In this document: positions 459 to 10,649 of the stretch, in pieces
Layout: each line of letters starts with the position of its first letter
Position numbering within the stretch: the first letter of the stretch is position 1
Made by a program: the position numbers and the translations under genes
The notes under the pieces: model-generated
Seen by the model: only the letters and a program-made list of their open reading frames with translations
What the model was told of the DNA's origin: nothing
Database searches by the model: none
From: a virus
Taxonomy: Duplodnaviria > Heunggongvirae > Uroviricota > Caudoviricetes
Length of the DNA: 13,071 bases
IMG/VR virus record: IMGVR_UViG_2681813316_000016
Span: 1 to 13,071 of that record
Direction: 5' to 3' (one strand)

Positions 459-627
459 TGTCTTAGCCTAAAGTAGTTGCAACAGTTGGAGCGATTATGG
501 TGGTAGTAGTGATCATCGCGCCCCCCATATGCAAGGGTTGACGACATTATTTATCCGGCGCTATATTCTGTGCGTTGCCGCAAAATCGGCGCACGGGATT
601 GGCGTCCCGGACATCAAAACGACGCAT

Positions 628-648
628 AACCGCGTTCGCGGTTTTTTT
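628..648 (+). terminator. Candidate intrinsic terminator (short GC stem ACCGC/GCGGT, tetraloop, run of 7 T)
   Basis: aaccgcgttcgcggttttttt read directly; lies inside the 5' extension of track ORF 575..1420. Confidence 0.4.
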
Positions 649-811
649 ATGCGCAGTGCACGTCTACACAAAAATTATGGTGGGCTGTGTGAGGGCTTCT
701 TCGGAAGCGCCGGATTTCGTTTTGACCGGTTACGCCAACCTTGCACAGTCCACCACCAGTCGATTGGCGTCGTCGGTGGTGATAGCTCAAATTCAAAACG
801 AGATTATCGCT

Positions 812-1420
812 ATGGTCACTCAGCTCGCATTCCGCGATGTAAAATTCACTCCTATAAATCACAACAACCAGATCTGGTTTACCAGCAAAGAATTGGCGGC
901 AGCATTAAAATATGCCAGCACCAAAGCAGTAACCGACATCTACAACAAAAATATTGATGAGTTTACTGACGGAATGTCTCAGGTCGTCGAATCAACGACC
1001 TCAGGAAATTATCGTAAGAAGACTCGCATTTTCTCCCTCCGTGGCGCCCATCTGATCGCCATGTTCGCCCGCACTCCTGTGGCCAAAGAATTCCGCCGCT
1101 GGGTGCTGGATATTCTCGATCGAGAAATTCAACAATCCCCAATCACAAAACAATTCACTGATAACGAACTTTGCACACTTGCTTGGTTATGGCGGGCAAG
1201 TGACACAATGTTAACCGCTTGCCAAAACGTCACTCCGCTTCTTCAGGTAGCAAAACACCGCGAAGCCGGTCGCTTCACTTCAATCGAACAAGAATATCCC
1301 CGGATACTCAATAAGGCACAGGCAATCCTTGCCAGAGAAACGGCACATGTAAAATTCCGGCCGTGGCAGGATGATAAGTGGAGTCGAGTATTGACGCATT
1401 TACGTTCTGAACGGCTGTAA
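812..1420 (+). CDS. Bro-N domain protein (phage antirepressor / Roi-like DNA-binding protein)
   Basis: Track ORF 575..1420; N-terminus from ATG 812 (MVTQLAFRDVKFTPINHNNQIWFTSKELAAALKY...IFSLRGAHLIAMFARTPVAKEFRRWVLDIL) matches the Bro-N pattern. Start uncertain (ATG 812 or 677); the 628..648 terminator-like hairpin argues against 575. Confidence 0.6.
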   Translation: MVTQLAFRDVKFTPINHNNQIWFTSKELAAALKYASTKAVTDIYNKNIDEFTDGMSQVVESTTSGNYRKKTRIFSLRGAHLIAMFARTPVAKEFRRWVLDILDREIQQSPITKQFTDNELCTLAWLWRASDTMLTACQNVTPLLQVAKHREAGRFTSIEQEYPRILNKAQAILARETAHVKFRPWQDDKWSRVLTHLRSERL

Positions 1421-1720: not shown

Positions 1721-2137
1721 ATGAATAAAAACGACCTTGAAGCATTATCTGACACTAGGCTTAATGAGGCCAAATGCTTGCTTGATCATGGCTTTTTTCA
1801 TGGTGCATATTATCTTTGTGGGTATGCAGTTGAATGTGCATTGAAGGCCTGTATTGCCAAGTCATTTTTACAACATGAGTTTCCAAACAAAAAAGTCGTA
1901 AATGATTCATATACTCATGATTTGTCGCAACTTCTCAAAATTGCCAACTTACATCAAATTTTGATTGCTGACGCAAAAAATGATGTTTCGTTGGAGATTA
2001 ACTGGTCGGTCGTTAAAGACTGGAGCGAGCAATTTAGATACGACAATAACATAAGTAAAGCTATGGCCGAACAATTGTTTGATGCTGTAGGTGACCAAAA
2101 TTCTGGAGTTTTGAAATGGGTAAAAGCACACTGGTAA
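1721..2137 (+). CDS. HEPN-like domain protein (138 aa), first gene of an AT-rich two-gene cargo cassette
   Basis: Track ORF; core GAYYLCGYAVECALKACIAK...SYTHDLSQLLKIANL resembles the HEPN helical signature (A-x-E-x-ALKA ... H-x-L-x-x-L); no canonical R-x(4-6)-H seen; visibly AT-rich; no obvious Shine-Dalgarno at ATG 1721. Confidence 0.55.
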   Translation: MNKNDLEALSDTRLNEAKCLLDHGFFHGAYYLCGYAVECALKACIAKSFLQHEFPNKKVVNDSYTHDLSQLLKIANLHQILIADAKNDVSLEINWSVVKDWSEQFRYDNNISKAMAEQLFDAVGDQNSGVLKWVKAHW

Positions 2138-2517
2138 TCGGCAGAGAGTTGACAAAAGATATGGAATTCTCAGGTCAATTTTTGTTAAAAAAACTCAAGT
2201 TACAGAATTTAACTATTGATGCTGCAATGTGGTTTTATTACCCAGATCTATCTTGGAGATATATTTTAGTTATCAGTGACTTCTCAGAACGTGGGCCGGC
2301 AGAAATATATAGAAAAATCAGTGAGATAAATAGAAATAGCATATCAAAAAAGTATAAGCCGATACCATTAGAAGCAATTGAGGCTAAGGGGGATTCAGCT
2401 TTTGTTTATAAAATGTTAAAAGGATTTGCTAGAGTCAACGATGGTAAAGTTCGCGTTTCTAATTCTATGGTAAATGGTTTAGAAATCGTTGACTGTCTGA
2501 TCTATGAGTTAAAATAA
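2116..2517 (+). CDS. Uncharacterized protein (133 aa; 118 aa if started at ATG 2161), partner of the HEPN-like gene
   Basis: Track ORF; start 2116 overlaps upstream gene by 22 nt, with GGAG about 8 nt upstream; no recognisable nucleotidyltransferase GS..DxD motif; AT-rich; no family recognised. Confidence 0.5.
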   Translation: MGKSTLVIGRELTKDMEFSGQFLLKKLKLQNLTIDAAMWFYYPDLSWRYILVISDFSERGPAEIYRKISEINRNSISKKYKPIPLEAIEAKGDSAFVYKMLKGFARVNDGKVRVSNSMVNGLEIVDCLIYELK

Positions 2518-4801: not shown

Positions 4802-5899
4802 TTAGAACTGGTAAACCAGACCTACAGCAACGATGTCATCAGTGCTTACACCGAGTGCTTTAGTGAAGTCATTTTTGTCAAGCAGGTTGATTTTGTAATC
4901 AACGAAAGTAGACATATTTTTGTTGAAGTAATAGGTTGCACCTACATCAACATATTTGACTAAGTCCTGATCGCCCCATACTCCAAGATCCTTACCTTTA
5001 GATTGCAGGTAAGCAACGGACGGACGCAGACCGAAATCGAACTGATATTGTGCAACAGCTTCGAAGTTTTGGGCTTTATTAGCAACGAAGTGATCAGCAA
5101 ATACAGTCATATTCTGGGTTTCAGAATAGGTAGTGGCCAGGTAAATGTTGTTAGCGTCATATTTCAGACCTGCGGCCCAAACTTCTGCATTTTTACCGGA
5201 AGCAAATACTTCAGGAAGAACTTTCCCTGCATTAACTTGAGTGTCGGTACGATCAGATTTCGCATAAGTTGCACCGATACCGAATCCTTCGTATTCATAG
5301 GTAGCAGAGAAACCGAAGCCATCACCGTTACCTTCAGTGTAGTTATCGAAATCGCTACGATCGTTTTTGCCTTGGTACTGAGCAGCAAAGTTCAGACCAT
5401 CAACCAGACCAAAGAAGTCGTTGTTACGATAGGTTGCAACACCAGTGGTGCGACCAGTCATGAACACATCTGTTTGGGTCCAGGTATCGCCACCGAATTC
5501 TGGCAGAACGTCAGTCCACGCACCGATGTCGTATGCTACACCGTAGTTACGGCCGTAATCGATGGAGCCGTAGTCACCGAATTTCAGGCCAGCGAAGGCA
5601 AGACGGGTTTTATCTTTGGAGGAACCTTGAGATTCAGCGCGGTTGCCTTTGAATTCATATTCCCACTGACCGAAACCAGTCAGTTGATCGTTGATTTGGG
5701 TTTCACCTTTGAAGCCAAGACGGGCATAAGTAGTATCACCATCATCTGCATCATTAGAGGAGAAGTAGTGCTTAGCATTAACTTTCCCGTACAGATCCAG
5801 CTTGTTACTGTCTTTATTATAAATTTCAGCTGCCTGAGCAGACATCGCCATCAGTACTGATGCAGCTACAGCAGAAATTGCCACTGTTAATTTTTTCAT
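4802..5899 (-). CDS. nmpC: Outer-membrane porin, NmpC/OmpD family (365 aa, intact, with signal peptide)
   Basis: Track ORF; signal peptide [23 protein letters not shown] then [16 protein letters not shown]...; porin-typical aromatic-rich strands and C-terminal VYQF. Confidence 0.9.
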
Positions 5900-7185: not shown

Positions 7186-7640
7186 GCAGAGTAACCGCGA
7201 TTATCTCCGCTCTGGTTATCTGCATCATCGTCTGCCTGTCATTGGCTGTTAATCATTACCGTGATAACGCAATCGCCTACAAAGAGCAGCGCGATAACAA
7301 GGCCAGTGAACTAGAGAAGGCGAACGCCACCATCGCTGACATGCGGAAGCGTCAACGTGATGTAGCAGAACTCGACGCAAGATACACAAAGGAGCTTGCT
7401 GATGCTAACGCGACTATCGAAAGTCTCCGTGCTGATGTTTCTGCTGGGCGTAAGCGCCTGCAAGTCGCCGCCACCTGTGCAAAGTCAACGACCGGAGCCA
7501 GCGGCATGGGCGATGGAGAAAGCCCAGGACTTACAGCAGATGCTGAACTCAATTATTACCGTCTCCGAAGTGGAATCGACAAGATAACCGCGCAGGTTAA
7601 CTACCTGCAGGAATACATCAGGACGCAATGCCTGAAATAA
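7182..7640 (+). CDS. rzpD: Rz i-spanin (inner-membrane spanin subunit)
   Basis: ATG 7182 within track ORF 7170..7640, overlapping endolysin stop; N-terminal transmembrane segment then coiled-coil-like charged region. Confidence 0.85.
7396..7587 (+). CDS. rzoD: Rz1 o-spanin lipoprotein, embedded in the +1 frame of Rz
   Basis: Track ORF fully inside Rz; lipobox-like VSAC with Cys22; Pro-rich mature part ([12 protein letters not shown]). Confidence 0.8.
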
Positions 7641-7663
7641 TTTTTTTGCAAATCACAAAGTCC

Positions 7664-7687
7664 ATTTAATGAGCCTCGCGATGCGGG
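7664..7687 (+). terminator. Intrinsic terminator after Rz (GCCTCGC...GCGGGGC stem, 7-T run)
   Basis: gcctcgcgatgcggggcttttttt read directly, about 25 nt after the Rz stop. Confidence 0.6.
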
Positions 7688-7809
7688 GCTTTTTTTACAT
7701 CTGAATTTCACAGCGCATCTCACGCGCATATTACATCACCCGAGCCTTTCAGAAAGTTGAGCCTGAGAACTGCCGTATATGGTGGCGACCATCTCGGGGC
7801 GGCTTTTCT

Positions 7810-8334
7810 GTGAGACAGGCTCACTTTCTAAAAGGTAAAGACGCTATGAACCAATTAGAAGAAAAGCTTCAAAGAATGATTTCCTTATACAAGGAAGATA
7901 ACTGCCAAAAAGTTCCTGAAAACATCGCAGAGTTAATGGAATTGGCAAGTGAATTTTCTGGCATGCTTAAGTCGTCAGGTGTTCGGTCAGCGTTCTTTGT
8001 TGAAATGCTGATGCACGGCGGACTTATGACAACAATGAGACGTGTAATGGAAGACCAGAGAAAAGAACCTCCTCAGGTATACGTTTTGTCATCGAAGAAA
8101 ACTGGGCTAACCAAAATTGGGTATTCATCCAACATTCCACAACGCATCAAATCGCTTGGCAACTCTGGACCAGACTGCTTGAAGCTTGAGTGCCTGATCC
8201 CTGGTGGAAGAGAAACTGAAAACATGCTTCATCGCAAATTTGCCGCAAAGAGAAAGCACGGTGAATGGTTCGCCCTGTCCAAGGATGACATTGAGGGATT
8301 GAAATCTGTAGCGATTACTTCTGATGGCTATTAA
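7810..8334 (+). CDS. T5orf172 / GIY-YIG-like domain protein; cargo gene where lambda carries bor
   Basis: Track ORF (GTG 7810; ATG 7846 would give MNQLEEK...). C-terminal half VYVLSSKKTGLTKIGYSSNIPQRIKSL...ETENMLH...GEWF fits the T5orf172 pattern; N-terminal ~80 aa unrecognised. Confidence 0.6.
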   Translation: MRQAHFLKGKDAMNQLEEKLQRMISLYKEDNCQKVPENIAELMELASEFSGMLKSSGVRSAFFVEMLMHGGLMTTMRRVMEDQRKEPPQVYVLSSKKTGLTKIGYSSNIPQRIKSLGNSGPDCLKLECLIPGGRETENMLHRKFAAKRKHGEWFALSKDDIEGLKSVAITSDGY

Positions 8335-8648
8335 TGCTTGTTTAGAGCAATTTTCATAACAACTCTTCATTACAAAGCCCATCTACTGGTGGGCTTGATA
8401 ATGAAACCGTGATTTACATCCCCACAATCCGGGTATGTAAAAGATAGTTCAGGCGAGAACGGATTTAACTAAATCTGTGCGTCACCAGTTAACGGCAGTA
8501 CCACGAAACAACCCAAGCCAGTAAGTGGGGAAATAACACCGGCAGCCACTGAAAGATGAACCTCCTGCCTTATGGCAAAAAAGATTCTTTGTGGTGGCGG
8601 ACTGATGGAAAGACATCCTAATTTCAGCCAAACATTGAAGGAGTTGTT

Positions 8649-8720
8649 ATGTCAGCAGAAGGTTTCAATAACCCATCAAAATTCCGGGATGAGTGGGATA
8701 GCAGCGTAAAGAGTAAGTGA
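8649..8720 (+). CDS. Hypothetical 23-aa peptide with strong Shine-Dalgarno (GAAGGAG)
   Basis: GAAGGAG 5 nt upstream of ATG 8649; MSAEGFNNPSKFRDEWDSSVKSK; sits in a ~680-bp gap without long ORFs. Sequence only. Confidence 0.2.
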   Translation: MSAEGFNNPSKFRDEWDSSVKSK

Positions 8721-9012
8721 TGCCATCACAAAAGCCATTCCCTACAGAGTGGCTTTGATAATGGCTTATACCCTACACGGGATAACTTAACTGATATCCC
8801 TTTTAAAGGATAAAGGTATTCAAGCCTGACACATCATGCGCTGTATCGTCGCCGTATTCCCGTATTAACAGAGACCGTAGCCCGACGGGGAACTCCTTCT
8901 GCGCGAGTGTGCGGGAATAATCAAAAACGATGCACACTGGGGTTACCGGGTACACATATTTCATCATGCCAGCGAGTCCGGTTCTGGCACGGAAGAAACC
9001 GGACGTTATGAT

Positions 9013-10102: not shown

Positions 10103-10623
10103 ATGGAAGTCAACAAAAAGCAGCTGGCTGACATTTTCGGTGCGAGTATCCGTACCATTCAGAACTGGCAGGAACAGGGAATGCCCGTTCTGCGAGGCGG
10201 TGGCAAGGGTAATGAGGTGCTTTATGACTCTGCCGCCGTTATAAGATGGTATGCCGAAAGGGATGCTGAAATTGAGAACGAAAAGCTGCGCCGGGAAGTT
10301 GAAGAACTGCGGCAGGCCAGCGAGACAGATCTCCAGCCAGGGACTATTGAGTACGAACGCCATCGACTTACGCGTGCGCAGGCCGACGCACAGGAGCTGA
10401 AAAATGCCAGAGACTCCGCTGAAGTGGTGGAAACCGCATTCTGTACTTTCGTGCTGTCGCCGGATCGCAGGTGAAATTGCCAGTACTCTCGACGGGATCC
10501 CCCTGTCGGTGCAGCGGCGTTTTCCGGAACTGGAAAACCGACATGTTGATTTCCTGAAACGGGATATCATCAAAGCCATGAACAAAGCAGCCGCGCTGGA
10601 TGAACTGATACCGGGGTTGCTGA

Positions 10624-10649
<26 letters not shown>
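10103..10649 (+). pseudogene. nu1: Terminase small subunit Nu1, split by an apparent +1 frameshift near 10459..10462
   Basis: Track ORF 10103..10474 ([36 protein letters not shown]...FVLSPDRR*) and ORF 10404..10649 (...IAGEIAS...SEYIEQSG) each match lambda Nu1 in different frames; window has gtcgccggatcgc where lambda has gtcgcggatcgc as recalled. Confidence 0.7.

Follow-up and report, generated by a model that had tools for sequence, protein, structure and literature searches.

The best-studied of the T5orf172 proteins, Odn (Gp88) of the lytic vibriophage ICP1, cleaves DNA in conflict with a competing element: its N-terminal RepA_N DNA-binding domain directs cleavage to the replication origin of a satellite, its C-terminal T5orf172 domain keeps the catalytic Arg and Glu, and the nuclease activity shown for that domain is lost in the Glu-to-Ala mutant equivalent in position to the Glu considered below (PMC8263062). 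In a treatment of phage homing endonucleases T5orf172 is considered a subfamily of GIY-YIG, with T5orf172 genes of ICP1, T5-like and other phages being documented or putative homing endonuclease genes often situated near terminase genes and at exchange boundaries (PMC10448857). The paper on Ssn GIY-YIG proteins mentions neither T5orf172 nor MUG113.

The other pertinent body of knowledge concerns a place rather than a protein. Among E. coli prophages the region after Rz is hypervariable, the slot there being occupied by an opposite-strand bor or iss, by Rha-family, KilA-N (in some cases together with HkbL), Gp49 or DUF6979 genes, or by nothing at all. Transcribed on the opposite strand from a promoter of its own, bor is expressed in the lysogen, its product being an outer-membrane lipoprotein. 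In P22 and phi80 the occupant is Rha and in HK620 it is the pair HkbK-HkbL. In P22 the late transcript extends from lysis genes into head genes (PMC2629481), and rha, the P22 occupant of the slot, is reported to belong to the late operon and to be detrimental to phage growth when IHF is absent (PMC4936722, citing Henthorn & Friedman 1995). Rha-ORF11CD3 and KilA-N-ORF11CD3 proteins belong to the domain-swapping ‘Bro network’ (PMC10111431), and the Rha- and KilA-N-type cargo of the slot (L002 973-1736; HK620 hkbK) has a common C-terminal ORF11CD3 that ends with IPGLP. What then is to be made of a T5orf172 gene in this position?

The stretch of DNA analysed, the window, is 13,071 nt long and is from a lambdoid, DLP12-like, E. 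coli prophage that from 3558 onward shares 98.5% identity with one in strain EM18-18-42. Its gene order is Q, porin (−), S, R, Rz/Rz1, the T5orf172 gene, DUF1398 and YlcI/YnfO (−), nu1 and the large terminase. Initial annotation had placed a plus-strand ORF, 7810..8334, after Rz/Rz1 where DLP12-type prophages have opposite-strand bor, and both the ORF and the correspondence of the position are as described. The two occupants share the slot between spanin genes and packaging region, as does iss, but bor and the T5orf172 gene are unrelated in sequence and in expression logic. The gene is real, and its start is ATG 7846 rather than the GTG at 7810 from which it had been called: AAAAGG at 7830-7835 precedes this ATG, PGAP and the annotators of HK106 (gp64) chose it, and the alternative cargo genes in other prophages begin at the same ATG codon. 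The GTG was rejected as a start and sits within the leader hairpin considered below. Also rejected was an antisense ORF, 8125..8382, which is absent from the RefSeq annotation and lies opposite a plus frame that is under purifying selection. For the plus frame dN/dS against the Salmonella orthologue is 0.15-0.16 and is similar for the two domains, so the gene is a real and selected one with both of its halves under purifying selection.

The gene is already annotated, and in well-known phages, with the domain call being routine. The RefSeq/PGAP name for its product, WP_016245257.1, is ‘GIY-YIG nuclease family protein’, and gp64 of HK106 is the same protein (98.8% identical). It matches PHROG 4284 (E 2e-87), a family of unknown function, and a search of the protein against NCBIfam gave no match. 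The combination of an orphan helical domain with T5orf172 is a new architecture within a known kind of nuclease. As with Odn, there is an N-terminal accessory part and a C-terminal T5orf172 domain with catalytic Arg and Glu kept, the protein is phage-encoded, and rha-like or Bro-N gene pairs feature in the neighbourhood. Unlike Odn, the accessory part is an orphan acidic helical bundle instead of a RepA_N domain, and the gene belongs to a temperate lambdoid phage, in its late operon, instead of to a lytic vibriophage. The coordinates of the features are collected in Table 1.

Table 1. Features in and around the slot after Rz/Rz1, in window coordinates
Feature	Position	Strand	Description and basis
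Intrinsic terminator after Rz	7671..7696	+	GAGCCTCGC-GAT-GCGGGGCTT, then T-run; terminator scan
Structured 5' leader	7744..7845	+	~100 nt, conserved; fold and covariation
Cassette block, apparently exchanged	7797..8371	+	Pairwise comparison with HK106
CDS	7846..8334	+	162 aa plus stop; WP_016245257.1, two-domain protein
N-terminal domain	7846..8061	+	aa 1-72; three-long-helix bundle, orphan by sequence
C-terminal domain	8062..8331	+	aa 73-162; T5orf172/MUG113, GIY-YIG-like beta-beta-alpha-beta-alpha fold
3' hairpin	8366..8405	+	Core AAGCCCATC-TACT-GGTGGGCTT at 8375-8396

The assignment of the C-terminal part to T5orf172 is borne out by the domain search, in which Pfam matches above cut-off span aa 78-151: MUG113 (PF13455) at 56.5 bits against a cut-off of 22.3 (E 4.4e-15, aa 90-151) and T5orf172 itself (PF10544) at 40.7 bits against a cut-off of 20 (E 3.6e-10, aa 78-150). 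Proteins of the epsilon34-type lineage likewise exceed the MUG113 and T5orf172 cut-offs. The generic GIY-YIG profile, PF01541, is sub-threshold (12.5 bits versus a cut-off of 22.6, E 0.19) and covers only aa 77-104. The AlphaFold2 model of the whole protein has two domains and is confident (mean pLDDT 87), and in structure comparison of the modelled C-terminal domain GIY-YIG nucleases rank first, with UvrC-N, T4 EndoII and Eco29kI following at lower scores. In the model the predicted beta-beta-alpha-beta-alpha core superposes on solved GIY-YIG domains. A profile search against PDB sequences yielded no relatives, and hhalign of the domain against an I-TevI sequence was uninformative, with a probability of 1.7%.

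The residues that had been proposed as catalytic (Y in VYVL, R in QRIKSL and E in ETENMLH) are invariant in two lineages that are 33% identical. Judged over 10 family members plus the epsilon34-type lineage (33% identity), the invariant set comprises Y79, K90-I-G92, R100, E123/E125, H129 and H138-G-E-W-F142, with the second motif reading KIG, i.e. with Lys in place of the second Tyr of the classical YIG. The classical GIY-YIG proteins (I-TevI, T4 Seg/EndoII, SLX1, UvrC-N and PD-T4-3) thus share with this one a predicted fold and the positions of the core Tyr, Arg and Glu, but the similarity is below the Pfam threshold, KIG substitutes for YIG and the partner domains are different.

The N-terminal part had been described as unrecognised, and so it is: its ~75 aa match nothing in Pfam or NCBIfam. 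With this domain as the profile, a search through 1.84 billion representative proteins brought back six, all of its own family, which makes transfer of a function impossible. In the AlphaFold2 model its helices are at residues 3-20, 23-43 and 49-71; it is mildly acidic (pI 5.3), and its structural neighbours are designed bundles and protein-interaction domains of the MIT type, not DNA-binding folds. When aa 25-68 were aligned by hhalign with the 89-aa HkbL of HK620 the probability was 92% (E 7e-7), and the two are probably homologous to judge from this alignment. In the same slot the small ORF hkbL overlaps hkbK, a KilA-N gene, at its 3' end, and the hkbK-hkbL pair is common in Stx phages. The shape and charge of the N-terminal domain suggest a module for partner binding or oligomerisation more than one for binding DNA.

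How is the gene expressed? Initial annotation had it lying between a terminator after Rz and a hairpin beyond its 3' end, and hence being an independent transcription unit of the prophage. Both structures are present, with the stem of the first at 7671-7691 and its T-run extending to ~7696, not at 7664..7687, and with the core of the second at 8375-8396 (extended, 8366-8405) rather than at 8384..8406. The former is also annotated as rho-independent in HK106 and epsilon34 and is kept at loci with other cargo. The latter is strong (−22.2 kcal/mol, z = −6.1) and from 8368 onward is common to Rha- and KilA-N-bearing loci, and on the plus strand no U-tract follows it; the terminator scan was silent for it on both strands. 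A scan for sigma-70-like promoters between the Rz terminator and the ATG (7697-7845) found none, the scan being consensus-based such that a weak or non-sigma-70 promoter in 7697-7743 could escape it, and in the curated HK106 and epsilon34 records the terminator is the only feature annotated there, with no promoter. A moron is expected to have its own promoter and a downstream terminator, and here there is no promoter-like site and a hairpin that lacks a U-tract. The notion of an independent unit is therefore not upheld: nothing promoter-like was seen, the gene runs in the direction of a Q-dependent late operon, one clear terminator and one terminator-like hairpin precede it, and a conserved hairpin pairs its Shine-Dalgarno sequence. 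The lack of a promoter-like site, the late-operon orientation and the sequestered Shine-Dalgarno point to late, Q-modified transcription with translation limited by the leader, and from these features we conclude that the T5orf172 gene would be expressed in this manner. A gene constitutively expressed from the prophage would look different.

The leader deserves attention in its own right. Its outer helices are formed by pairing of 7744-7757 with 7823-7836, the strands being GCCUUU.AGAAAGU and ACUUUCU.AAAGGU, and they take in the Shine-Dalgarno AAAGG (7831-7835); inside them are P2 (GAGCCTG/CAGGCTC) and P3 (AGAA/TTCT), and the core is a GC hairpin, 7772-7803, which is followed by TTTTCT and is terminator-like. 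The fold of the window leader has z = −3.2, the same architecture is the minimum-energy fold in 11 of 12 diverse leaders, and distant versions in which both strands of a helix are changed still keep it. R1, a covariance model built on this structure, gives 88 matches in 88 sources, with a score of 110 bits for the window. In the covariation alignment, which is one fitted to the model and for which most loci were fetched by a pattern that fixes helix P2, 92.6% of cells are paired and compensatory double changes occur in 24 of the 34 pairs; none of 500 shuffles was as high, and slid controls gave 3-11 pairs. Rfam has no match in window 7600-8500 even at E<=1, and matches to the IHF consensus, looked for because IHF reportedly controls rha, were no better than chance.

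Of 5426 E. coli genomes 906 have the leader module (the 150 nt 5' of the ATG), as do 153 phage records, with Escherichia, Salmonella, Klebsiella, Enterobacter, Pantoea and Providencia among the phage hosts. What follows the leader varies. Among 87 viral loci the ORF at the leader ATG is of the Rha type in 47, of the KilA-N type in 16 and T5orf172 in four, with other Bro-like or miscellaneous proteins making up the rest, so the T5orf172 gene is a minority cargo. Some phages have two copies of the leader (L026, L051, L076 and L089).

Leaders 100% identical to that in the window precede Rha or KilA-N from the same ATG. When the window is compared with a Rha-bearing locus homology extends from Rz to 7853, 8 nt into the CDS, and resumes at 8368, which is 34 nt past the stop codon and at the foot of the strong hairpin; junctions recur at 7850/7853 (the ATG plus 5-8 nt) and 8368 in comparisons with Rha or KilA-N loci. 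Initial annotation had commented that T5orf172 domains are usually fused to Bro-N or KilA-N and had pointed to the separate Bro-N gene at 812..1420. That was in the right direction, but the relevant link is to the CDSs that replace the T5orf172 gene at its ATG, Rha-ORF11CD3 and KilA-N-ORF11CD3, rather than to the distant Bro-N gene. Between the window and HK106 there are 30 differences in 7690-7796, two in 7797-8371 and eight in 8372-8452, and on this comparison the block 7797..8371 is seemingly a recently exchanged one. A near-identical block, diverged flanks and recurrent junctions together indicate that the CDS behaves as a cassette swapped by recombination in conserved flanks.

The CDS occurs in 82 of the 5426 complete E. 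coli genomes (1.5%), with one copy in each and with 81 copies being at least 99% identical, and two cultivable phages, HK106 and Chlobot, have it as well. The orthologues of Salmonella and Klebsiella prophages (73-83% identical) and a 48%-identical relative are all between lysis genes and terminase. The epsilon34-type lineage (T5b; epsilon34 gp68, WP_001058931), at 33% identity, is in the same slot in the P22-like epsilon34, in g341c and in E. coli prophages, and one relative with 35% identity is located elsewhere. In a Klebsiella locus (L147, 3001-4187) the T5orf172 gene is followed by an overlapping gene for a 232-aa Endonuclease_NS protein (PF01223), giving two tandem nucleases in the slot after the lysis genes.

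The reading that we prefer, one that we would credit about as readily as doubt, is of an accessory gene of the lambdoid late operon that provides, as a swappable cassette, a throttled small two-domain endonuclease for late DNA cleavage. With its Tyr, Arg and Glu intact, the C-terminal T5orf172/MUG113 domain would make the product a putative endonuclease. Rather than being a self-transcribed moron, the gene would be reached only by Q-antiterminated late transcription that passes a clear terminator and then a hairpin resembling one, with translation being throttled by the pairing of the Shine-Dalgarno within the ~100-nt leader hairpin. Leader, slot and start codon would serve Rha-ORF11CD3, KilA-N-ORF11CD3 and T5orf172 genes interchangeably, with recombination, at the 3' hairpin and inside the conserved leader, exchanging one for another. 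The protein would probably carry out low-level cleavage late in lytic growth, with possible targets being the DNA of a competing phage, of a satellite or of the host, or branched DNA. We infer that the protein is an active endonuclease that acts in lytic growth, and our leading guesses as to its role are conflict with competing elements, as for Odn, or selfish spread.

A more ambitious reading can be put forward only tentatively. In it the leader would represent an undescribed class of cis-regulatory RNA, an SD-sequestering hairpin with an embedded terminator-like stem, that gates swappable, potentially toxic, cargo where the lysis cassette ends, in lambdoid phages from many genera of enterobacteria; the cargo in the present case would be a late nuclease that functions in mobile-element conflict, the protein with its HkbL-like domain and T5orf172 being guided by a partner rather than by a DNA-binding domain of its own.

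Might the gene instead be a free-standing homing endonuclease, one that cuts the slot or a neighbouring gene in phages where the slot has Rha or KilA-N or is empty, and is then copied in by repair? The homing endonucleases with T5orf172 that are described from ICP1, T5-like phages and others share with it the nuclease family, frequent siting near terminase or at exchange boundaries and a modular domain organization (PMC10448857); the gene is polymorphic for presence and absence at a fixed locus near terminase genes, and a 575-bp block is near-identical in the unrelated phage backgrounds of the window and HK106. We nevertheless think homing unlikely. There is no recognisable sequence-specific DNA-binding module, be it zinc finger, NUMOD or HTH, the extra domain being an acidic three-helix bundle, whereas T5orf172 homing endonucleases are multi-copy and nearly always carry CapR, DUF723 or DUF4397 zinc-finger repeats (87% of them; PMC10448857), of which the window protein has none. 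Further, the gene is single-copy, is restricted to 1.5% of E. coli genomes and is a minority cargo of its leader, and the junctions are exactly at the start codon and the 3' hairpin with another CDS being replaced, for which recombination in conserved flanks is a better fit than insertion with co-conversion tracts.

Less probable again is domestication with loss of cleavage, whereby the T5orf172 protein would bind DNA to regulate or modulate phage development and would be the functional equivalent of the Rha or KilA-N protein that it replaces. The idea draws on the interchangeability, at the same ATG and behind the same leader, with ‘regulatory’ proteins of the Bro network, on the resemblance of the N-terminal domain to HkbL, whose small ORF partners that of the KilA-N protein HkbK, and on the precedent of PLE CapR, a domesticated repressor of the T5orf172 family (PMC8096241, PMC10448857). 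Rha and HkbK, with which the T5orf172 gene shares slot, leader, start codon and 3' junction, are DNA-interactive or regulatory proteins, whereas the window protein has a nuclease domain; a Pfam search for Bro-network domains (Bro-N, KilA-N, Rha, ANT and ORF11CD3) found none in it. Invariance of the putative catalytic Tyr, Arg and Glu over deep divergence is not what would be expected had catalysis been lost, and the Endonuclease_NS gene that comes next in the Klebsiella locus suggests a DNA-degrading context.

As to defence, for superinfection exclusion there is one weak, domain-level PADLOC match, to candidate family PDC-S57 (E 6.9e-6, aa 73-146), and in PADLOC-DB 2.0 no defence system with partner genes was found, the neighbours being lysis and packaging genes. 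The earlier reading, that of a moron expressed in the lysogen from its own promoter as a stand-alone defence or superinfection-exclusion nuclease, is accordingly the least probable of those considered and one that we doubt strongly, since besides the lack of a promoter-like site in a late-operon gene behind one clear and one terminator-like hairpin, and the sequestered Shine-Dalgarno, the same leader precedes Rha, known as a late-operon gene (PMC4936722), the PADLOC match is limited to the T5orf172 domain, and there is no adjacent immunity or modification partner gene.

Returning to the preferred late-operon endonuclease, taken alone the gene is one more uncharacterised T5orf172 nuclease among the accessory genes of temperate phages, and its presence in the cultivable HK106 and epsilon34 makes it easy to test. 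The by-product is more novel than the gene: the leader RNA is widespread and is outside Rfam. That hundreds of E. coli prophages, Stx phages included, have one leader with a hidden ribosome binding site in front of Rha, KilA-N or nuclease genes that exclude one another gives a concrete handle on the old question of what the late genes of the ‘Rha/Bro-network’ do and how they are restrained, and the locus shows how cassette exchange at the slot proceeds.

Several other parts of the window merit mention. At 576-760 (+) Rfam identifies isrK (576-648, 61.9 bits) and C4 antisense RNA (673-760, 82.5 bits), immediately 5' of the 812-1420 gene, whose product has Bro-N and P22_AR_C and is of the antirepressor type; the ensemble is reminiscent of an RNA-controlled antirepressor module of the P1/P7 immI or P4 kind. 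In the nin region 1721-2137 (+) encodes a HEPN-domain protein (Pfam E 3e-6; PADLOC candidate PDC-M28A, E 2e-7), and the gene overlaps 2116-2517 (+), a downstream 133-aa ORF that has no family match; the two may be a toxin-antitoxin or abortive-infection pair. Between Q and the holin gene, 4802-5899 (−) encodes a general porin of 365 aa that is OmpC/NmpC-like. An opposite-strand porin is typical lysogenic-conversion cargo in DLP12-type prophages. The small terminase gene, nu1/nohD (10103-10649, +), has at 10460 a C that the intact gene of EM18-18-42 lacks and is in consequence split into ORFs 10103..10474 and 10404..10649, due to which the prophage may be defective, a sequencing error being the other possibility. 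Downstream of the 3' hairpin core, 8397-9012 comprises ~600 bp with no annotated gene and has mosaic junctions at 8416/8483 and 8622/8725; at the second of these ~100 bp in the window corresponds to a Gp49-family gene in other prophages, and some other prophages go from Rz straight to 8721.
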